Of a DNA stretch of 64,000 bases, positions 17,966 to 59,459 are shown one piece after another. Within the stretch, counting starts at the first letter, position 1; each line of letters starts with the position of its first letter. The translations under genes and the position numbers were made by a program. Origin of the DNA: a virus (Duplodnaviria; Caudoviricetes); the IMG/VR virus record IMGVR_UViG_3300001598_001791, positions 1-64,000 of that record. One strand, 5' to 3'. The notes beneath the pieces were generated by a model, which saw only the letters and a program-made list of their open reading frames with translations, was not told the DNA's origin and ran no database searches.

Positions 17966-18880
17966 ATGAATACAGAGTTATTTAGTAATTTATCAGATCA
18001 AGAAAAAGAATATGTACTTAAAATTTTAGATGGTATTTCAAAAAATGATAACTCAGAATTAACTAAACTGTTATATGAAGATTATAGAGAAATACCTGTA
18101 GACATAAATACTTTTTTACATGATCCTTATTATTTAGGAAGAGGTTTGATTGATGGTGAGGGGAGATTTACTTTATTTCCTTATTGAGAGGAATTATTAA
18201 AGAAAATATACCCAGACCCACTGAAACCTGCTATATGTAATACATTAGCTCTTACAGGAGCTATTGGTATTGGTAAATCAACTGAAGCAGTAATCATAGG
18301 TATTTATGAATTATATAGAATGATGTGTTTAAGAGACCCATCAGTTTATTATGGTATCATGAGTACTGATACAATTTCATTTGCAGTTATTAATATTACT
18401 TTAGAGGCATCTAAGGGTGTTGCTTGAGATAAATTTCAAAATCTGATTCAATCTTCAGGATGGTTTATGAATCATGGAAAAATGGCCGGTATAAATAAAC
18501 CTGAATGAGTTCCTGATACTCAATATAAAATTGATTTAATTTGTGGATCTCAGCCAAGACATTTTATTGGTAAAGCATTATATTGGTGTTTAGATGGTGA
18601 TACAGTTATAGCTACAACAGATGGCAATAAGAAGTTAAGTGAACTAACTAATAAAATAATACAAGTGTTTACTATTAACGAAAAAGGTGAAGTTGTTGTA
18701 AGTGAAGAGTGCACAGTAAAACCTACAGCTGTAGAAGATATAGAATATCAAATAGAACTAGATGATGGTTCAGTAATAAAATGTACACCTACACATAAAT
18801 TTATGCTAAAAGATGGTTCATATAAGGAAGCACAATTTTTAACTGAAGAAGATGAATTATATGATGTGGAGGTTTCTTAA
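17966..18880 (+). CDS. terL: terminase large subunit N-terminal part fused to N-intein (Int-N, 97 aa from Cys at 18587)
   Basis: Walker A TGAIGIGKS; three in-frame TGA (18185, 18425, 18506); then intein block A CLDGDTVIAT and block B CTPTHKFM; TAA stop. Confidence 0.9.
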
Positions 18881-19567
18881 ATGAAAGTTATTAAAGAACA
18901 AAAGCATTTTGGCTATATTTATAAACTTACAATGATTCCCACAGGTAAAATATACATAGGTAAAAGAGAAAAAGATAAAATTGATGTAGGTTATTATGGG
19001 TCAGGCAGAGATTGAAAGATTGATCTTAAAAAATATGGTAAAGAAAATGTTAAAGTTGAAATACTTGATTGAGCAGATTCAAGAGATGAATTAAGAGAAA
19101 AAGAAGTTTATTGAATTAAGGAGTATAATTCTCAAAATAAAGAAATTGGTTACAATGTTCATAAAGGTGGTGCTGGTGGAAATTCATTAGGTGATACTGA
19201 AGCTTGAGCAGAATTGCATAGAGGTGAGAAAAATGGTAGATATCATATGCCTGTCAGTCAAGAGACAAGAGATAAAATTGGTGTTGCAAACTCAGGTAAA
19301 ATAAGATCACAAGAAACAAAAGACAAAATTTCAGCTTCAACAAAAGGTGTTCCAAAACCAAATGGATTTGGTGATAAAATAAGTGCTGCAAGAAAAGGTG
19401 TTCCAAACACATGAGCATGAAAATCAGTTCAATGTATAGAAACAGGAAAGATATATAAAACAGTTCATGATGCATCAATTGATACAGGTGCAACAAATAT
19501 CGCAAGATCTTGCAAATTAGGTGTGACATCAGGTGGTTATCATTGGAGATATGTAAATGAAAATTAA
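18881..19567 (+). CDS. free-standing GIY-YIG homing endonuclease with NUMOD3/NUMOD1-like repeats (228 aa, code 4)
   Basis: GYIYKL...KIYIG, YYGSG, E..WIKEY and GYN motifs; SQETRDKI repeats; six in-frame TGA. Confidence 0.85.
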
Positions 19568-21071
19568 ATCAATTAGAAGAACTAAATTATCTTCTTTAAA
19601 ACAATACTATGATGTCATTAATGCTAATCCATATAATAATTTTTTAATTAAAACAAATAAAAGTTATGTTTGTTCTCATAATTGCTTTATGGATGAAGTG
19701 AGTTTTCAACCAAATCAAGACATTAATCGTCAGAAGGAGAAGGCTACAGAATTAGTATCTTCTGCAACTGCACGTATGCAATCACGTTTCATGAGAAATG
19801 ATGTTAATCCTACAATTCTTGTAATGGCATCATCAAAAAGAACTGAACAATCATTCTTAGAAACATGGATTGAAAACAAAAAGAAAAATGATAGTAAAAC
19901 TACTATTGTTATAGATGAACCTCAATGGATTATTAGAGCAGATAAACAGTCTGAAAGAACATTTAAAGTAGCAGTTGGTAATAAATTTCTTGTATCAGAA
20001 GTACTACCCCTAGACTTAACAGAAGATGAAATTGGCTATTATAGAGAAAAGGGGTATAAAATTATCGATGTTCCAATAGGATACTATGAAACATTTATAG
20101 ATAATATTGATATTGCTCTTACTGATGTTGCCGGTATTTCAACTACTAGCATCAGTGCCTATATTTCTGGGGCAAGGCTATCACAAACAAAAACTGAGAA
20201 AATTGAGAATCCTTTTGTTAAAGATATTATTGAAGTCGGTGATGGTAAAGATGACTTACAACAATATTCCGATTTCTTTAATTTAGATAAAGTAGACCCT
20301 AAGATGAAATCAAAACCCTTATTTATACATCTTGATATGTCTCTTACTGAAGATAAGACTGGACTGTGTGGTGTGTGAATAAAAGGTAAAAAACCACCAC
20401 AAGATGGTGTTCCAGAGAGCCGTGAATTATATTATCAACTGTCATTTGTTGTGTCCATAAAGGCACCAAAAGGGCATCAGGTTTCATTTGAGAAGACAAG
20501 AAATTTTATTTATTGGCTAAAAAAACAAGGTTTCAACATAAAGGGGATAACCTCAGATACTTATGCTAGGTCAGGTATAGAACAGGATCTAATTTCAAAA
20601 GGATACAATTATGGGATACTGTCAGTTGATAGGACTAAAGATCGTATCTGCGAACCATATGAATACCTTAAAAACACTATATATGAGCAAAGAATACTAT
20701 TACCTAGATATGGAGTTAATTTACTGACTGAAGAATTGGTTGGCCTGAAGCGAGATAATAATTCAGGAAAAATAGACCATGACCCGTCTGGAATAAATAG
20801 TAAAGATAGTTCTGACGCCTTGTGTGGAGCTTTATGGACTGCATCCCAACATGCTGAAGAGTTTGCATATGACTTCGGTGAAAATGCCCAAGCTTTATTA
20901 GATTTTAATAATGATCTTGGAATAACTGAATATAATGAAGAATTTGAAGAATCTATAAAATTAGCTAAAAAGAAATCTTTATATACACAGAATGAAGATT
21001 CTAATTATCTTGATTTTGGGTATGGTATCCCGATGGAATTACCCTTTGAAGATGGAATAATGCTATTTTAG
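19557..21071 (+). CDS. terL: C-intein (42 aa) fused to terminase large subunit C-terminal part (code 4)
   Basis: MKIKSIRR...YYDV...SHN followed by C-FMDE (Walker B); nuclease motif IHLDMS; read-through of TGA at 20376; SKDSSDA motif near the C-terminus. Confidence 0.9.
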
Positions 21072-25886: not shown

Positions 25887-28800
25887 ATGGCAAAAAACTT
25901 ATTAGAAGACTACAAAGGTAGACTTTCTGTTAGATTTTAAGCAGCGTAGTGAAGTAATTTATTATGATGTTTCTTATTGTACCTAAATACAATACTTTAA
26001 TCTACTGTCTCTAATAAGAGAAACAAACCTGGTGAATTCATGGAAAATCTAAAACTTAACGGGACCTCCCAACCCGGTTTTAGACAATCATGAGCCAAGC
26101 CCATTCGGGAAGGTGCAACGACTATCGAAATGGTAGTTTAGGAGAAAAACCTAAATAAGAACAAAGTAGAGTACATCTAATTAGGTGGAAGTACCAGGGT
26201 CCTTATAAAGGATAAAACAACATAAGGATATGATATAGTCTGATCTCCGTGGTGACATGGAGTTAACACAAATGTTCTGAAAAATTCTATGGCGACCGTA
26301 ATGAAGGCGCTAAGATGGGAAACGCTAAAAAACTTTTAACTGCTCAATGTTTAGACAATGTAGCTAAATATTTAAATGAGGCATTCACAATGACTGCAGG
26401 AACACAAAGAGGCGATTTAGGCGCTTTCAAAGTTTTCTGTATGGACATTACTACATTAACAATGCCAAACCTTATTGTTAATGACTTATTTATGGTTCAA
26501 CCAATGAGTTCATTCCAAGGTTATTAAAAAGTTATAGTAACCTAGCTGCTATAATAAAAAGAAGGCAGCTACAATAAACCTCATAAATTCATGGAAACTC
26601 CTTACCTTTCAGGACAATCATGAGCCAAGCTTTCAATTTCTCAGTTGAAAGAAGGTGCAACGACTATCGAAATGATGGCTAGTAATAGCTAGAACAAAGT
26701 AGAGTACAATTCAAATGAATTGGAAAGATGAGGCTGCCAGAAATGGTAGATAATATAGTCTAAACTATATGGTAACATATAGAAAATATTTTGAGAAATT
26801 ATTAATAAATGGCTACTGAGAAATAAAAAGCTTAAAATAATTTCAATGATTTATTTGTAATACAATTGTTAACTTACATGGAATATGCTTTAGCACCAGC
26901 TAAGGGTGGTGTTGCTGAAGGTACTGTTGTTCAAAATCCATTCCAATGGGCACCAATGACAGAAGCTAGAATGCAATACACTGGCGAAGCTGTTGTTGAA
27001 AAGATTGATGCTACTGGTGGTATTACCTTCGCTTGGGGACCAGTTGTTTATGGTAAAGCTGAAGACATCAGAGTTGAAGTAAACGGCGCTTACGTTCCAG
27101 TTCCAGCTGACAGACTAGTTAAAGATGCTAATGGTAAAGTTATTGGTATCGCTGCTGGTTATATGGCTGAAGGTACAAGAGTTGCTTATAGATATGACAA
27201 CCAATTAATCCCACAAGAAAAACTTCCTGGCATCAAAGGCCAAATGAAGGGTATCGCATTAGTTGCTAAAGCAAGAAGAATTGGTATTGAATATTCACAA
27301 TTCGCGGCTTAACTCAAGATACAAATCTTGAAAAGGTCCCTTACACAGTAATGTGTATTGAATAACCTATTTAATTGCTGGGAAACCTTTATAGCTAACT
27401 AAACTACAACGCAATTTGAAAAGATAATCGTGAAAGTTTTAAAATTAGTTAGATTAGGCAATCAGCAGCGAAGTTCCTTTAAAATGGAAAACGTTCAACG
27501 ACTATCACCGGCGGGTGAGTAGATATTATGTAATATCAAAATAATAGGTATTTTTAAATCAAAAAAATAAATTATGGAAAAGAAAAAGAGAATTCCTTGA
27601 AACAAGGGTCTTACAAAAGAAACAGATCTAAGGGTTGCTAAGGGAGCTGAAAATACTAAAAACACAGTATTATCTAGATACGGTGTTAGTAATATATTTC
27701 AGTCAAAAGAAGTACTTGATAAACTTTCTGCAGATAGACATTCAGGTGAACTTGCAAGAAGAGCAATGGACACAAAGAAGTTAAGATATGGCGATCCGAA
27801 TTATAATAATATTGAAAAGAATCATCAGACTAAATTAGATAGATATGGTGATCCAAACTATAATAATCAAGATAAAAACTATGAAACAAGAAAAATAAAC
27901 GGCACATTTAATACATCTAAACCAGAAGAAGAATTAAAACAAGAACTAGTAAATAAATACGGTGAGGAAGACGTAGAAGTTGAATATAGAGATCCTAGAT
28001 ACCATAATAAAGAAGGGTATAAATATAAATGTGATTTCTATGTTAAATCTGAGGATTTATTTATTGAACTTAATTACTGGCAAGGACACGGACCACATCC
28101 CTTTGATGAAAATAATGAAGAAGATTTGAAATTATTGGTTAAGTGAGAAGATAAGGCTAATTCAGGATTACCTCAATACAAAAATTATATTTATGTATGA
28201 ACTGTTGATGATCCTAATAAATTAAAATGCGCAAAGGAAAATAATCTTAATTATCTGATGATTTATAGGAATGGTTTAAAAATAAAGATATAGTCTCCTC
28301 TCTTACGAAAGTAAGAGGCAATAATTATTGCATTATAGAGTAACGATCTATAATAAAGAAAAGGTTTCAAGCTAAGCAAGATTACGGCATGGACTTCGAA
28401 GCTACTATCGCTCAACAAGCCCAAGCTGAATTAGAGTATGAAATTGACTCTGAAGCGGTATTCATGATCAAGAATGCTGCTGATGCATCAGCTCCAGTTG
28501 TTACTTGGGTTGATGAAGAATTGGATTAAGAAAAAAAAGTTTACATTTTCTTACAATTATTGTTACATTTATTATAAAGATAATGGAAATGATATAAGAA
28601 GATGTACTACATATTTTACATATTTATTTAATAATAAAGAACATACTTATACTCCTGATTTTATTATAGGAGATGAATATGCTGATGTTAAAGGTACACA
28701 TTTTATTAAAGATAACAGAATGATTAACCCGTATGATCGATCTTTAGATGATCAATATGAAGCAAAACATCAATGTATAATTAAAAATAATGTAAGACTT

Positions 28801-31800
28801 ATTTTAGAAGAAGAAATAAATAATTGTAAATTATTTGTAGACCAAGAATATGGTTGTAATTATATAAACCAATTTGAGGTGACTAAAGGTCCCTTAATAT
28901 AGAAATATATTTAGAAAACGATGTGAATTTCTGGGACATCTTATATACTTGCATACATATATAAGACAATCAGAAGCCAAGCAAATAGAAATATTTGAAG
29001 GTTCAACGACTATCGAAAAGTTAGTTTAAGAGAAATACTGAAATGAGAACTTAGTAGAGTACACTTTAAGTAAAGTGGAAGCGCATCGAAACTTACAGAG
29101 GTTCAAACAATGTAAGTTTATGATATAGTCTGATCTTATAGGTAACTATAAGAAATTAGATGGAAACGATCTAATTGTAACATAAATGACAATCAGCTAT
29201 TCAATGAAGGCTAAACCTATTTTGGTCTTGGCGTAAGTAATTACGTAAAAATATAAACCGCATTAACTCAGGGGAACTCCCACAGGGAAAATCCTGATCC
29301 GAGCCTCTACTGTAAGAGGAAGGTGCAACGACTATCGAAAAGGTCATTAATAAGAAATATATTAATGAGAACTTAGTAGAGTACATCTCAAAAGAGATGG
29401 AAGTGTGCGGCAACCTAGAGAGGATAAAACAATCTAGGCTGAAGATATAGTCTGAACTCTATAGCAATATAGAGAGAATTAAATTTAGTTTAAATATGAA
29501 CAATATAGAAGAAAAACAAAAAAATCACGCTGGAGGTACTAAAGGTTTAAAGTACTACAATGAGTGTAATTACAACTGAACTCATGGAAATACTGAACTC
29601 ATGGAAATCATGCATATGATTAAAATAATGAAGACGATCTTGAGAAGGTTGTTGAATGAGAAGATAAAGCCAATGAAGGAAAAAATTATTATAAGAATGC
29701 AATCTATACATGAACAATTTTGGATGTTCGTAAACAAAAGACTGCTAAAGATAATAATTTAAACTATATTGTTATATATAAATAATTGTTTAATTCGTAA
29801 CATAATTGGAAGGCTTTGCTAGAGCTATCGAAAGAGCTAAAGCTCATGTTTATAAAGCAACTGGCAGATTTATGCCTAACTGGATTAAAAATCTTGAATT
29901 TTGTTGCTAAATTTATTGTATAATATAATAAATAAGGCAATTTGGCATGAATGAACAAATAATAAAATTTTACAAAACACATACTGGTGCAAAAACTAGA
30001 AAACAATTTAGTTAATATATGGTAAAAATTATTTAAAGTCATTCAAAATTTAAAGATATGTCCCTTATTAAAGAAATTTAATATAGAAAACCACGAGAAT
30101 TCATGGAAACGCCTATTCACATTGGAGAGTGATTAGGTCAATCATGAGCCAAGCCCATTCGGGAAGGTGCAACGACTATCGAAATGATATGCATATACTT
30201 AATATGCAGAGTAACAGAGTAGAGTAAGACTTAAGAAATTCTGAAGTACGTGGGATCTAGAAATAAAGTAATCTAGATTATGATATAGTCTGAACTTATA
30301 AGTAATTATAAGAAAATAAACGGATTCGGTTTATTTGTAACACAATTGGTTAGTTTCTCCAGATATGATGACTATCCTTCCATTCGTTCCTGGTTTCGTT
30401 CATGCGAACAATGCTATTGCTAACGGACCATATGTTGCTGGAAATGTTGCTGGAATGAAAGTTATCGTATCACCAGCTTTAGGTAACAAAGTTTGTTACT
30501 TAGGTGTTTTGGGTGCAGATGGCAAGACTGCTGTTGGTGTATATGCTCCATTAAAAAATTATGCTTTCGCATAATGATTACAGTGGCCTTAAACAGAGAT
30601 GTTTAAGTGAAAACAAATTTAATTGCTGGAAAGTCCTTAGAGCTCTTTTGGCTACAACGAAAGAAGTAATTCTAATCGTGAAAGCTTAAAAACAAAAGAG
30701 ATTGGATAATCAGCAGCTAAGTTACTTATTTATGAAAACATATTTATTTAGGTATATTGGTAGGACAGTGGGTTGCAAACCATTTTCTATTACTCCTAAT
30801 AATAGAATTACTACCTATATATAAATTTAATTTTAGAGGATTATATTTTGTATGGATATGTTTATTTAACTGAAAATTTAATAAGTAAAAAGTTCAACGA
30901 CTAAGGGGTAGCACCCTGTAATAATCAAATGATTATGAAAGAGTTTGCATCTTATCCTAAATAAGATGATAATATAGTCTCTTCTCTATAGAAATATAGA
31001 GCTACAAATTGTAGTAGTTAAAGTAATGAATTAACTAAAAGATAAAAGATATGCCAATCGTCCCAACTCAATTATTAGGCTTTGCTGATGGCACTATGAG
31101 CCAAGGTTTGACAATCGCGACATGGCAGTTCGCGTAAGACCGTTTACTTAGCAATAAGTAAAATAAATCACATATTTAATTGCTGGAAAATCGTAAAGCT
31201 CACAAGCCTGAATGGTTACGAAAGTAGAAACAAGTTGTGAGATATCTATATGGTGTAAACCTAAGTAGATGTAAATCGATAATCAGCTTCCAAGCTTCTG
31301 TTTAGAAGAAGGATCAACGACTATCCCCTAGTGGGAGTAGAGAAGAAGTCTTCTCGAAAAGGTATGCATCTTAAAAAGATGATGATATAGTCTATACTTT
31401 ATTCGAAAGGTAAAGGAGAAATTATTTTGGGAAAAAGAACAAATTATATTAACCCTGATACAAAAGAAGTTATTTGATGTATTAGAGGTAATCAACCAGA
31501 AAACTGAGTTGAAATAAAACATTTTAAAAAGGTAGATGAGTTAAAGAATACTATTTCTAAAGAAGAATTATTTATTTATTATATTATAGAAAATAATAAT
31601 TTTATAACTACTGCTAAATATTTCAATATAAATCCTGCAAATGTATTACATGATTTACTAAAATATTACGGTATACATAAAGATAGTGTTTCTTCTAGTA
31701 AAAATAATAAATATAAAAGATCAAAAGAAGAATCCATTTTAGTTGGACAGAAATCTTCTTTAACACAAAAAGAAAAATGGAAAAATAAAAGCATTGAGGA

Positions 31801-32561
31801 AAAAGAAGAATATAAGGAAAAACAAAAAATAGCTCATTCAACTGATACTTTCAGAAAAAAAATAAGTGATATAAATAGAGAATATAGAAAAGAACTAAAA
31901 GATACTGATCCTGAATTAGATTTTGAATTAAATAGGCGTAGGTCTATTTCATGTAAAAAAACTTGGTCTAATAAAGATTTAATAGACAAAAGGAATGAAA
32001 CAGCTAAAAAGAACAGATTAGAAAGAAAAAATCAAATTTGTAGAACTAAGGCTGAACAATCAGTCTATAATGTACTGATTAATTTATTTCCAGATCTTAT
32101 TTATGATAAAATAATTGATGAAAGATATCCTTATCATATTGATTTTTATATTCCAAGTGAAGATCTATTTATAGAACTAAACGCACATCCTTCTCACGGT
32201 AAACATCCTTTTACTGGTGATCTGAATGAATGCTATAATATCACTGGTAATTGGCTAGATACTTATATTAGACGAGACGTAGAAAAAAGAAATTGTGCTA
32301 TTTCAAATAATCTTAATTATTTAGTTATTTATCCTCAATCATCTTTAAGAGAAAACATCTCATTTAATCCCGAAAAATATAAAGACTTAATAAAAATTAT
32401 TTATAATTCCCAGAATAAATCTCACTAATGATTAACGACCATTAGTAAATATATTAGTTAGCACACTTTATGATATGCGAATCTTAAATGAAAAATTATT
32501 AGCAAAGATCAACGTTGTTGAAGGCGATGAAGCTGCATTGGTAAAAGTTTTAGAAGCTTAA
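25887..32561 (+). CDS. major capsid protein (T4 gp23-like), 454 aa, spliced: join(25887..25930,26275..26524,26869..27309,28365..28526,29189..29212,29809..29885,30349..30551,31049..31108,32458..32561)
   Basis: Exons sum to 1365 nt with no internal stop; junctions give VQPMSSFQGYLTY, YSQFAAFQAKQDYG, ELDTISYSMKAEGFARA, MPNWMLVSPD, GVYAPYMPIVPT and SQGFSTLYD, matching gp23-type motifs. Confidence 0.9.
25931..26274 (+). other. group I intron 1 of the capsid gene (344 nt, no ORF)
   Basis: Exon ends in U, intron ends in G; P1 CUGU/GCAG; P3 CCUGGU/ACCAGG; P7 GACUA...AUAGUC. Confidence 0.85.
26525..26868 (+). other. group I intron 2 (344 nt, no ORF)
   Basis: P1 GGUUAU/GUAACC with U.G at the splice site; P3 CCUCAU/AUGAGG; P7; terminal G. 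Confidence 0.9.
27310..28364 (+). other. group I intron 3 with endonuclease ORF in P8
   Basis: AUUGCUGGGAAA, AAUCAGCAG, UUCAACGACUA and AAGAUAUAGUC core elements; P3 ACCUAUU/AAUAGGU; terminal G. Confidence 0.85.
27574..28293 (+). CDS. intron-encoded putative PD-(D/E)XK (Vsr/DUF559-like) homing endonuclease (239 aa, code 4)
   Basis: P(TGA)NKGLTKETD motif; RYGDPNYNN repeats; YKCDFY...LFIELN; the TAG stop lies inside the P7 3' strand. Confidence 0.75.
28527..29188 (+). other. group I intron 4 with ORF remnant in the P1 loop
   Basis: Exon GGAU pairs with GUCC about 365 nt downstream; P3 CGAUG/CAUCG; P7; ends GUAACAUAAAUG. Confidence 0.85.
28528..28902 (+). pseudogene. start-less TnsA/PD-(D/E)XK-like endonuclease fragment
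   Basis: YTPDFII..EYADVKG motif; no in-frame ATG upstream of the nuclease motif within the intron. Confidence 0.5.
29213..29808 (+). other. group I intron 5 with decayed endonuclease in P9
   Basis: P1 AAGGCU/GGUCUU; P3 CCGCAU/GUGCGG; P7; ends GUAACAUAAUUG. Confidence 0.85.
29496..29785 (+). pseudogene. degenerate homing endonuclease, paralogue of the intron-3 ORF
   Basis: C-terminal WEDKANEGKNYYKNAIYTWT...KDNNLNYIVIY matches intron-3 ORF WEDKANSGLPQYKNYIYVWT...KENNLNYLMIY; most of the N-terminal part is missing; 17-nt tandem duplication at 29575-29608. Confidence 0.75.
29886..30348 (+). other. group I intron 6
   Basis: Exon GGAU pairs with GUCC near 30060; P3 CCACG/CGUGG; P7; ends GUAACACAAUUG; splicing creates the AUG codon of MPNWMLV. 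Confidence 0.85.
30552..31048 (+). other. group I intron 7 with GIY-YIG remnant
   Basis: P1 CCAU/GUGG; AUUGCUGGAAA, AAUCAGCAG, UUCAACGACUA and AUAUAGUC cores; RBS plus LYGYVYLTENLISKK at 30848-30892. Confidence 0.85.
31109..32457 (+). other. group I intron 8 with endonuclease ORF in P9
   Basis: P1 GGUU/GACC; core elements at 31167-31392; terminal G at 32457 restores SQGFSTLYD. Confidence 0.85.
31427..32428 (+). CDS. intron-encoded putative PD-(D/E)XK homing endonuclease (333 aa, code 4)
   Basis: AAGGAG RBS plus TTG start; two TGA; RYPYHIDFYIPSEDLFIELN..HG.HPF motif shared with the intron-3 ORF. Confidence 0.7.
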
Positions 32562-32572
32562 TCCCAAAAATT

Positions 32573-32601
32573 AAAAGAAGCTGAAAAGCTTCTTTTTTTT
32601 T
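32573..32601 (+). terminator. capsid operon terminator
   Basis: AAAAGAAGCT-GAAA-AGCTTCTTTT followed by a T tract. Confidence 0.8.
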
Positions 32602-47481: not shown

Positions 47482-48059
47482 TGATAGTTACTAAAGCTTA
47501 TATAACAGAGATGCCAAAAGATGGCGATAATATCTTTAAGGTTAATGTACCCTTGATGTCAGATAACACTTTAAATGATGCTATATTTGATGCGTTATTG
47601 TGTACTGACCCTATTAGTTATAGTGGTTATTCTGTTGGTGACCCAGTCTTTGTGACATTTGAAGATGAAAAATATAATATTGCTATAATTTTAGGTAAAT
47701 TATTTGTTTCTATACCAACAGAGTCTAAGTCATATACTATTACAAATGAATTGAGAGTAACTGGACAAGCAAACTTACCACCAAGTACAAAATTTGGAGA
47801 GTATACCGTTCAAGACTTCACTAATTTATATAATGCTACACTTAATTCAGGTGGAGGATCGCTAGATAAAGAAGGATTAGAAAAGTACTTAAAAGAATAT
47901 GTTAAGTGAGAAAGCACTGAAGAAATAATAGAAGAAGAACCAGTAGAGGTTTTTGCGAATAAAATTTTATGTATGTCAGGTGAAACCTACTCTCTGATAA
48001 CACCAGTAGATAATACATTATACTTCTTAACAAGTGTACCTACAGAGGAAACTCAATAA
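47481..48059 (+). CDS. probable baseplate spike (gp5/gpV-like OB fold; 192 aa, code 4)
   Basis: FKV.VP, VGD.VFV.FE....IILG pattern; TAATG overlap with the next gene. Confidence 0.55.
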
Positions 48060-49105
48060 TGCCAATTAAGTTAAAAATAGAAGATATTTTAAGAATTAGA
48101 TTAAAAGATAAACAAATTTGGAGAGTATATAACAAAGATCAACTTATCTGAGGATATTATCTAGTTAATTATAACTTTGCTGAGGGAATTAACGACCCAG
48201 ATAATCCTAAAGATTATGTTTGAGGTATTAAAGATATTACTTTATTACCAGCTGAATGAGAAGAAGCTGATGACTTTATGGGTTGATATGATAGTATAAC
48301 TCTTGAACGAGTTATTGATAAAATAAGCAAAGATGATCACCTTGATTTTAACTTATATGCAAAGTGAGTTAAACATAAGTTGCAATACAGAGGATGGTAT
48401 ACTTGGACAGAGCCATTTACTCCAACTTGGACTATTAGAACAGCCAGGCCTACAGTAACCAGACCAGATGTGTTCCCTTATACAAATGATATTTATTGGG
48501 GGTGGAGTCCACATACTTGTGCCTGGTATTGTTATGGTAGAACTGCCGAAGCAGCAGTCAATAGTGGTATAAGTAGTGAATCCAATGCGTTTTTTGCACC
48601 AAATGGAAACCCACCATGGGATGGTAAGTCGGGTGGTCACTATGGAGATGCCAAAGACTGGATTAACAGTGTATATGCAGTAACAGACTCTACAGTTGGT
48701 GTTCAACCTGGAAATGTTGTTATTTGTACCTATACTGGAGAAACATCTGGATATAAACCAGGTCACGTTTTATTTATTGAAAGAGTTGAGTCAACTAGAA
48801 TAACTACAACTTGTACTGCATATGGTTTCCCCTATTACTGAGATCCTGGTGCCTTGAATATGGGTCAAAATTTATATAATATTCCAGGTGATAGTGGTTA
48901 CTTTACTGTTATTGGTTATATAGATAATCCTCAAATGGGAGGCACTGTTATCAAAGAAGCTGAACAAACTGAATGGAGTGATAACCCAAACCCACCCAAG
49001 GGAAGTTGAAAAGAAGGTTACCCTGAAACAAGAGGACTTGAAAGTGTGTATGATTATGAAAGTGAATCATGGGGAGAATGGAGGGAGATAAATGAGATCA
49101 ATTAA
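48059..49105 (+). CDS. virion-associated CHAP-like peptidoglycan hydrolase (348 aa, code 4)
   Basis: TCAWYCYGR and PGHVLFIE motifs; seven in-frame TGA. Confidence 0.7.
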
Positions 49106-57769: not shown

Positions 57770-57937
57770 ATGGAAAAATACAAAGCAACAGACAGAATTG
57801 TGGCGTCAATAAAGCCAGACAACCCTCTAATGAAACAACTAATTAGGTATTTAGAGGAAAATGACTACTCTATGACAAGTGTAGTTAAAAAAGCTTTGAA
57901 GATGTACCTTGACAGTGAGGAGAATAAACAAAAATAA
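57770..57937 (+). CDS. small ribbon-helix-helix-like protein (55 aa)
   Basis: Short strand-helix-helix pattern, S.TSVVKKAL..YL; not in the ORF track. Confidence 0.45.
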   Translation: MEKYKATDRIVASIKPDNPLMKQLIRYLEENDYSMTSVVKKALKMYLDSEENKQK

Positions 57938-58439
57938 TTTTAAGTCAAGAAATCATTCAAAGTTTCTATTGCAATTTCATGTGATTTTAGTTTGTAAATA
58001 CAGATTAAAATTATTGGATAGTAATGTTTCAATCGAAATAAAAAAATTATCTGATGAAATTGTGCAAAAGCATGGTTGTTCTATTAAGTATGTTGAGTCT
58101 GATTTAGATCATATTCACTACTTAATAGAAACATTGCCAACAACAAATCTTTCAAATCTAGTAAGAGTACTTAAACAATACACTACATATCACATTTGAA
58201 AAAGATTTGATTTTTCAAACTATTTATGAAAAGAACATACTTTTTGAACTGATGGCTATTTTATTAGCTCAATAGGTAATGTGTCAGAAATGACAATAAG
58301 AGAGTATATAGAAAACCAAGGGAGAAATCATGGTCAAAAAACAAAGCATACAAATTTAAACTTGAACCAACTAAAGATCAAGCTATTTTGATCAATAAAA
58401 CTTTTGGTTGTGTTCGCTTTATTTACAATAAAATGCTAG
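57909..58439 (+). CDS. tnpA: IS200-type Y1 transposase (code 4)
   Basis: FHVILVCKYR, HUH motif DHIH, KEHTF(TGA)TDGYF..SIG, catalytic Tyr in IREYIENQ; C-terminus extended by an extra A near 58340. Confidence 0.85.
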
Positions 58440-59459
58440 CTGACAAAAAAAGAAGCTTGAGAAAAAGATAAAATAAATTTAAAAGTTTCTCCAGCACAAT
58501 ATAAAGAAGAATTTGAATGGCTGTCTGAAGTAGATAGTCATGCACTTGGTAATGCTCAATTAGATTTGAATGCCGCATATTCTAATTTTTTCAGAGGACT
58601 CAAAAAGAAACAAAATATTGGATTCCCCAAATTTAAGTCAAAGAAATTTTCGAAAAGAAGTTATACAACTAATATAGCGAATAAAGACTCAACATCAATA
58701 AGGCTTGAAGATGATCATTTCTTAGTTCTTCCTAAGCTAGGTAGAGTAAGATTTAGAAAATCTAGGGATGTTGTTGGTAAAATAAAATCAGCTACAATTT
58801 TTCAAAATGCAGTTGGAAAATACTTTGTAAGTATCTTAGTCGAATACGAATGAGAAAAACCAAATTATCAAATAAACTTAGAAAATTCAATTGGTCTAGA
58901 TTATTCATCTCCTGATTTCTATGTAGATAACTTTGGAAACTCTCCTGAAAAGATTAAATTCTTTAGAGAGTATGAAGATCAGTTAGCTAAAGAACAAAGA
59001 AAATTAGCAAACATGAAATTAAACTCAAACAATTATCAAAAGCAAAGAAAGAAAGTTGCAAAAGTATATGAGAAGATAGCCAATTCTCGTTTAGATTTTT
59101 GTCATAAACTTTCTACACAACTTGCTAACCAATATGATATTGTTTGTGTTGAAGATATAAATTTAAGAGCTATGTCTCAATGTCTTACTTTAGGCAAAGC
59201 AACTATGGACAATGTGTTTGGAATGTTTAGATCTTTTCTACAGTACAAACTAGAAGATAGAGGTAAAGAATTTGTAAAGATAGACAAATGGACTCCAACA
59301 TCTACGGTATGTTCAGTTTGTGGAACGTATCATAAAGATATAGTCTCTAATCTCTCTGTTAGAGAATGGACATGTCCAGATTGTGGGACTATCCACAACA
59401 GAGATATCAACGCTGCTGAAAATATTAGATTAGCTGGAATTAGTTTACTCACAACATAA
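58330..59459 (+). pseudogene. tnpB: TnpB RNA-guided nuclease gene with two +1 frameshifts in A-runs
   Basis: KAYKFKLEP and GCVRFIYN N-terminus; RuvC IGLD, VEDIN and RDINAA; CSVC/CPDC Zn finger; frame changes at 58336-58341 and 58445-58451; two TGA. Confidence 0.8.

Follow-up and report, generated by a model that had tools for sequence, protein, structure and literature searches.

Exons and reading frame of the capsid gene

The DNA analyzed here (the window, 64,000 nt) covers positions 1 to 64,000 of the IMG/VR record IMGVR_UViG_3300001598_001791, a virus of the Caudoviricetes, and belongs to a contig of 78 kb. Our subject is the segment 25887-32561 of its plus strand, in which an initial annotation, made from the letters alone, had placed a gp23-like major capsid gene interrupted by eight group I introns. 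The gene is 6.7 kb long, its exons sum to 1365 nt and about 80% of it is intron. Exon 1 (25887..25930, 44 nt) carries the start codon and lies directly 3' of a prohead protease gene (Pfam PF03420). It is followed, on the same strand, by exon 2 (26275..26524, 250 nt), which matches the major head protein family phrog_138; exon 3 (26869..27309, 441 nt), which includes a variable region free of intron sites across the family; exon 4 (28365..28526, 162 nt); micro-exon 5 (29189..29212, 24 nt, encoding 8 aa); exon 6 (29809..29885, 77 nt); exon 7 (30349..30551, 203 nt); exon 8 (31049..31108, 60 nt); and exon 9 (32458..32561, 104 nt), which includes the stop codon. Downstream of the gene, also on the plus strand, a hairpin at 32573..32596 resembles an intrinsic terminator by consensus match only, and promoter matches were at chance level.

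When the nine exons are joined, a single frame of 454 aa results, in which each upstream exon ends in U and each intron in G, as previously claimed. Near each junction, several alternative in-frame pairs of an exon-terminal U and an intron-terminal G exist in a chance control, so that the splice-end rule alone is insufficient to place the junctions and the boundaries were checked independently. When the raw DNA was aligned with splicing, but free of any splice rule, to a profile built from capsid homologues, all eight introns came out again; six were exact to the base, and for the other two a 1-nt shift tied with the annotated position. The nine exons and eight introns were thus borne out. The joined protein aligned end to end with full-length Gp23 homologues (residues 4-452), with 62% identity to P0001, 60% identity to P0005 and zero gaps at the junctions.

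Hidden Markov model and structure searches were done with homologues of the joined protein, not with the joined protein itself. P0001 matched Pfam Gp23 (PF07068, 105 bits against a cut-off of 24), and the profile of the capsid family matched solved gp23-type major capsid structures. The gene order is T4-like (portal, prohead protease, then capsid) and is the same in the intron-free relative L001. The closest cultured relative by identity, Bacillus phage vB_BceM-HSE3, reaches only 28.5%, and no close cultured relative was found. With exon 3 as query, no viral contigs and no Pfam or PHROG family were matched, while exon 7 has a close relative in P0130, for which no contig is on record. Standard annotation had been expected to miss the gene altogether; it does call capsid fragments of 69-70 aa, and with the match of exon 2 to a head-protein family the gene is fragmented rather than invisible. 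These results support the initial annotation: the gene is a T4 gp23-type major capsid gene with eight group I introns.

We also considered whether the gene is functional. Comparison of the exons with seven relatives gave nonsynonymous rates (dN) of 0.21-0.27 and synonymous rates (dS) of 1.4-2.6, the latter near saturation, and by this measure the capsid exons are under purifying selection. The share of C-ending codons is 0.49 in the capsid exons, compared with 0.13-0.20 in other genes and 0.41-0.42 in intron-free capsid copies. No second capsid gene, which would have counted against the initial annotation, was found on the 78-kb contig, which is ~47% complete by CheckV. The intact frame, the selection and the codon bias point to a working capsid gene.

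Intron anatomy and intron-borne reading frames

All eight introns lie on the plus strand. Intron 1 (25931..26274, 344 nt, no open reading frame [ORF]) is inserted after codon 14 in phase 2, with its guide G at 25941 and P7 motifs at 26116 and 26233, and scores 78 bits with the Rfam group I model RF00028. Intron 2 (26525..26868, 344 nt, no ORF) follows codon 98, with guide G 26537 and 63 bits; its site is common to the relatives L017, L053, L057, and L086. Intron 3 (27310..28364, 1055 nt) follows codon 245, with guide G 27335, a long P5 extension, an endonuclease ORF in the P8 loop and partial Rfam matches. Introns 4 (28527..29188, 662 nt, after codon 299, guide G 28889, 71 bits) and 6 (29886..30348, 463 nt, after codon 332 in phase 2, guide G 30060, 68 bits) have a long-range P1, and between them lies intron 5 (29213..29808, 596 nt, after codon 307, guide G 29224, 71 bits). 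Intron 7 (30552..31048, 497 nt) follows codon 400 in phase 1, with guide G 30583, an insert of ~150 nt in P6a and a partial Rfam match, and its site is common to L017, L086, and strain variants in L009 and L011. Intron 8 (31109..32457, 1349 nt) follows codon 420 in phase 1, with guide G 31138 and no Rfam match, at a site common to L086. RF00028 scores five of the eight introns above the gathering cut-off, gives partial matches below it for introns 3 and 7 and misses intron 8; long inserts break the model.

P7 and J8/7 motifs are present in all eight introns, and helix checks found P3, P4, P6, P7, and P8 paired in every one, with an invariant P7 that has the G-binding G-C pair (the core helices of introns 4 and 7 were read by hand). 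Each intron also forms a P1 with 4-7 exon pairs in which the splice-site U pairs with a guide G. This pairing had been predicted, and it needs one correction: P1 is local in six introns, but the guide G lies 363 nt into intron 4 and 175 nt into intron 6, where the local P1 search was unsuccessful and the guides were found only by searching next to P2. Introns 4 and 6 have an identical guide sequence on an identical exon ending, so that mis-pairing and exon skipping are possible. P10 with the 3' exon comprises 4-7 bp in introns 2, 3, and 5 and at most 3 bp in the remaining introns. In intron 5, the first P6 pair is a U-U mismatch, which recurs in L055. Each of the eight introns has an in-frame stop near its start, and removal of all eight would thus be required to make the protein, as had been proposed.

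Covariation was assessed in an alignment of 13 introns, five from the window (1, 2, 4, 5, and 6) and eight from relatives. In total, 98.9% of the cells pair and 27 of the 42 pairs changed on both sides, with a structure drawn from one member, which favors that structure somewhat; none of 500 shuffles was as good and slid controls reached 33-41%. Two extra hairpins (P7.1 and P7.2) are predicted between P7 and the 3' strand of P3 in the seven folded introns and were also seen in intron 7. Such a hairpin pair is a mark of IA-type introns (PMC3984707), and by these features the introns resemble IA-type phage introns (IA2 or IA3). By their cores they fall into two lineages, introns 1, 2, 4, 5, and 6 on one side and introns 3, 7, and 8 on the other.

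The endonuclease ORF in the P8 loop of intron 3 (27574..28293, plus strand, 239 aa) contains three TGA=Trp codons. Its family has at least 530 members in a homologue search, with invariant D152, E163, and H170, and the first six homologues looked up all lie at the same capsid site. A confident model of the homologue P0010 resembles Vsr (Z 8.2, root-mean-square deviation 2.8, 95 residues aligned) and I-Bth0305I (Z 6.4, root-mean-square deviation 2.9, 78 aligned); Foldseek with the endonuclease model returned nothing at E<=0.001. The second long frame, after P9 of intron 8 (31427..32428, plus strand, 333 aa), has a TTG start and two TGA=Trp codons. Its C-terminal domain is related to the intron 3 enzyme, and the homologue search found no close relative of the ORF. 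On the modeled fold, the products of the two long intron ORFs are putative endonucleases of the PD-(D/E)XK or EDxHD (I-Bth0305I-like) type. In the P1 loop of intron 4, an ORF at 28528..28902 (plus strand) matches the C-terminal half of a 303-aa intron ORF of L015 (38% over 143 aa) and is probably a truncated nuclease ORF; in intron 5, a broken endonuclease remnant lies at ~29564-29782 (plus strand), at a site where relatives have long ORFs. The introns thus present a decay series, with long ORFs in introns 3 and 8 and remnants in at least two others (4 and 5). In the P6a insert of intron 7 (window 30733-30885), a terminal short frame resembles by eye the start of a GIY-YIG nuclease, with no significant match.

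Coding density is 0.80 under table 11 and 0.92 under table 4. TGA=Trp is found in the structural module (window 2514-59459) and is almost unused in the replication genes beyond 59.9 kb, a pattern known from recoded gut phages (bioRxiv 10.1101/2021.08.26.457843). The capsid exons of the window have zero TGA codons, unlike the ORFs of introns 3 and 8, and the capsid exons of the whole family have 3 TGA against 128 TGG. No suppressor tRNA was found on the 78-kb contig. A CHAP-domain protein just below the Pfam cut-off (window 48059-49105) contains seven TGA codons, a hint that the host has a wall and is not of the wall-less code-4 kind.

Distribution of introns across the capsid family

Our family sample comprises 35 capsid genes reached through viral contigs, metagenomes and endonuclease contexts, some at partial loci. 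Coreless "introns" of 150-276 nt that the aligner placed in variable regions were excluded. In this sample, 16 genes carry 64 introns at 35 sites and 19 are intron-free. The load ranges from 0 to 12 per gene, with seven introns in L052, eight in L055 and twelve in L086. The L086 gene (L086:5896-17178, ENA ERZ27279218 k141_557930) spans 11.3 kb and has thirteen exons, one of them of 13 nt, and 11 of its 12 introns are above the Rfam cut-off. The capsid proteins of these three relatives are only 42-43% identical to that of the window. Their genes have just one or two intron sites in common in pairwise comparison, and those in common with the window number four in L086, one in L052, and one in L055. 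With so few common sites among heavily loaded genes, the heavy loads mostly arose separately.

Insertion sites lie in conserved sequence (0.70 versus 0.62, P ~0.002 with sites treated as independent) and avoid capsid residues 102-197. Intron cores are 70% identical at the same site and 60% identical within one genome. Local duplication of introns was considered and rejected, as cores from the same genome are no more alike than unrelated cores. This clustering of the cores by site argues for independent homing with hitchhiking, rather than for local duplication or designed control.

Group I cores are confined to the capsid gene in the window contig (G000, 78 kb) and in the relatives G001 (140 kb) and G006 (44 kb), and likewise occur only in the capsid gene in the 7-20 kb loci of relatives. 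The window contig also carries polymerase A, thymidylate synthase, helicase, primase, terminase, and portal genes, all without group I cores. In L086, the portal and terminase carry intein domains instead of group I introns.

Several further elements were observed along the way. In the window, the terminase large subunit is encoded in two genes through a split intein (17966-21071), with a free-standing GIY-YIG endonuclease gene between the halves (18881-19567), and in L002 the DNA polymerase A is divided over two ORFs (L002:8584-11780, genome 67583-70779) that are not separated by a group I core. Transposase-family genes (phrog_506) lie at window 57909-59459 with a weak group I match of 13.6 bits at 59210-59366, which we did not count; a stronger match in L064, beside a gene similar to the phrog_506 transposase, is perhaps a transposon-linked intron. 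The first long gene 3' of the capsid gene in L052, L055, and L056 has the same DUF7487 endonuclease-associated domain, and in L057 and L059 ORFs that lack annotation but have a similar size lie just 3' of the capsid gene; all five are possibly free-standing endonuclease genes. The last capsid intron of L055 (L055:11953-12942, Logan SRR33917144) seems to end in A instead of G, as frame, guide and P10 all put the 3' splice site behind an A; a possible reading is an omega-A intron or an assembly error. In L009 (1-2484) and L011 (78-1754), a capsid end that lacks an intron precedes an intron core, after which the last exon appears again; these are probably variants from strains that differ in the site-400 intron and were collapsed together. 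Finally, L086 has a tRNA-like element with an abnormal anticodon loop at 18939-19012 (39 bits in Rfam, no assignment by ARAGORN).

Accumulation of the introns and comparison with known systems

The explanation that we consider very probable is that the locus is a working gp23-type capsid gene of a TGA=Trp-recoded myovirus-like phage, whose eight self-splicing introns were gained by homing and hitchhiking. The gene would be transcribed into a pre-mRNA whose capsid part takes up 6.7 kb, 80% of it intron, and from which eight cis-acting IA-type ribozymes would excise themselves by the guanosine-initiated two-step reaction to leave the 1365-nt frame. The introns would be selfish elements, gained one at a time into conserved parts of the capsid gene through endonuclease-driven homing between co-infecting relatives. 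From the known biology of group I introns, we infer both splicing in vivo and homing. Repair of a cut capsid gene would copy the flanking DNA, and introns with dead or lost endonucleases could then ride with active neighbors; the pile-up in a single gene would be explained by such co-copying of neighbors within a few hundred bases. This hitchhiking feedback is offered more tentatively as the reason for the capsid-only clustering. Precedents are T4 trans homing, for the mobility of introns without an ORF (PMC2790892), and collaborative homing (PMC3984707).

A number of observations weigh against this explanation. In two distant relatives (capsid identity 39-40%), group I introns instead interrupt DNA polymerase genes, so that the capsid-only rule has exceptions. 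The hotspot sample is also biased by its origin, since capsid sequences or the intron-3 endonuclease served as queries for its loci. The window genome is known from a single assembly, about 47% complete. Two of its introns, 4 and 6, require a long-range P1 and use one guide sequence, and in intron 8 the first P4 pair is a U-U mismatch. The fold matches of P0010 to Vsr and I-Bth0305I are only middling.

The introns might instead be kept because they benefit the phage, serial splicing delaying or throttling capsid output and TGA-gated endonucleases, made late from an abundant capsid mRNA, cutting the capsid genes of co-infecting competitors. Their capsid-only placement in close relatives would fit, as would the presence of TGA in the endonuclease ORFs and its near absence from the capsid exons of the family. 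Agate phages, too, reportedly have an intron endonuclease with a TGA bias (bioRxiv 10.1101/2021.08.26.457843), and interference competition by an intron endonuclease has been published (PMC11620839). However, more than half of the relatives (19 of 35) are intron-free, the heavily loaded genes have just one or two sites in common, most introns of the window are now without an ORF, and codon bias from high expression may by itself account for the use of TGG in the capsid gene. We therefore regard this alternative as unlikely. A wider speculation, to which we give a small chance only slightly better than that, is that the capsid gene is a selected intron island: its late, abundant transcript would deliver TGA-gated endonucleases against competitors' capsid genes, up to twelve splicing steps would set the timing or the yield of capsid, and other essential genes would be invaded only by inteins or ribosome-bypass cassettes.

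The introns could also be real while their count of eight is an assembler mosaic of co-existing strains that differ in intron content. The collapsed variants with and without the site-400 intron in L009 and L011, and the origin of the genome in one assembly, speak for such a mosaic. Independent assemblies nevertheless reach 7, 8, and 12 introns, five of the seven internal exons are at most 203 nt long, and no exons are duplicated, which together make a mosaic very improbable. That the gene is a decayed capsid copy overrun by mobile elements, with the working copy elsewhere, would find room in the missing half of the genome and some encouragement in the mismatches of two cores, but with an intact frame, low dN/dS, high-expression codon bias, a normal position after portal and protease and intact cores we give it almost no credence.

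If each intron were removed with 95% success, 66% of transcripts would lose all eight, and with 80% success only 17%; given this steep loss, the ribozymes should be very efficient or helped. The initial annotation had held that eight group I introns in such a gene exceed any known case. No phage gene with eight was found in the literature covered, which included few subscription papers, and so the claim stands against that literature, but eight is not a record within the family, where L086, L055, and L052 have twelve, eight, and seven. Eight to twelve introns, in the late gene that is normally expressed most strongly, are at least double the published per-gene count that we found (three to four).

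A close likeness is in crAss-like phages of the Zeta group, where the capsid gene of cMAG OLRF01000054 is in five fragments with four gaps (Yutin et al. 2021, PMC7886860). There too a gut phage major capsid gene is split by several group I introns, and recoded stop codons are known in the order but are absent from the capsid gene. In the Zeta group, however, the gaps were inferred from protein domains and the introns, as many as 14 in one genome, interrupt many different genes, whereas the window family has eight to twelve introns in one Gp23-type gene and none elsewhere in close relatives. In a gene of Staphylococcus phage Twort, exon skipping is reported along with three group I introns (Landthaler and Shub 1999, cited in PMC11878797). 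Twort shares with the window several group I introns in one phage gene and exon skipping as a risk; it differs in having three introns rather than eight, with splicing shown in Twort and inferred here.

Single capsid-gene introns occur in mycobacteriophage LittleE and lactococcal phage Tuc2009, and that of LittleE splices efficiently by reverse transcription PCR and N-terminal sequencing (PMC3706429). In both, the intron sits in the gene of the most abundant virion protein, but there is one only, and the phages are siphoviruses with other capsid families. The Jug jumbo gut phages have 18.5 group I introns per genome, with splicing supported by metatranscriptomes (PMC12880540). They are likewise T4-like gut phages rich in group I introns; unlike in the window, their introns are of ~206 nt and spread over terL, nrdD, and other genes, the capsid gene is listed among the conserved genes present in one copy, and there is no recoding. 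The Lak preprint has no capsid introns. Agate phages are TGA-recoded and have genomes of 127-154 kb; their intron endonuclease favors TGA (Borges et al., bioRxiv 10.1101/2021.08.26.457843). They share TGA=Trp in structural but not replication genes, a pattern common to several clades that does not identify the window phage as Agate; their reported intron is in an early gene, with no mention of a multi-intron capsid gene.

Outside phages, many group I introns in a single gene are reported for the fungal mitochondrial cox1, for example of Agaricus bisporus (PMC2987802). Here cox1 is likewise one conserved gene that serves as a reservoir of mobile group I introns at many sites. It is an organelle gene without the rapid coupled translation of phages, and its introns and endonucleases are of other families.

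In summary, capsid-gene introns were already published, and what is new is the extreme count together with a family-wide capsid hotspot of 0-12 introns. A family with such a range at 35 sites makes it testable why mobile introns accumulate in certain genes, is a source of natural ribozymes by the dozen and of a large family of endonucleases, and explains by its intron load the fragmentation of capsid genes of such phages in databases.

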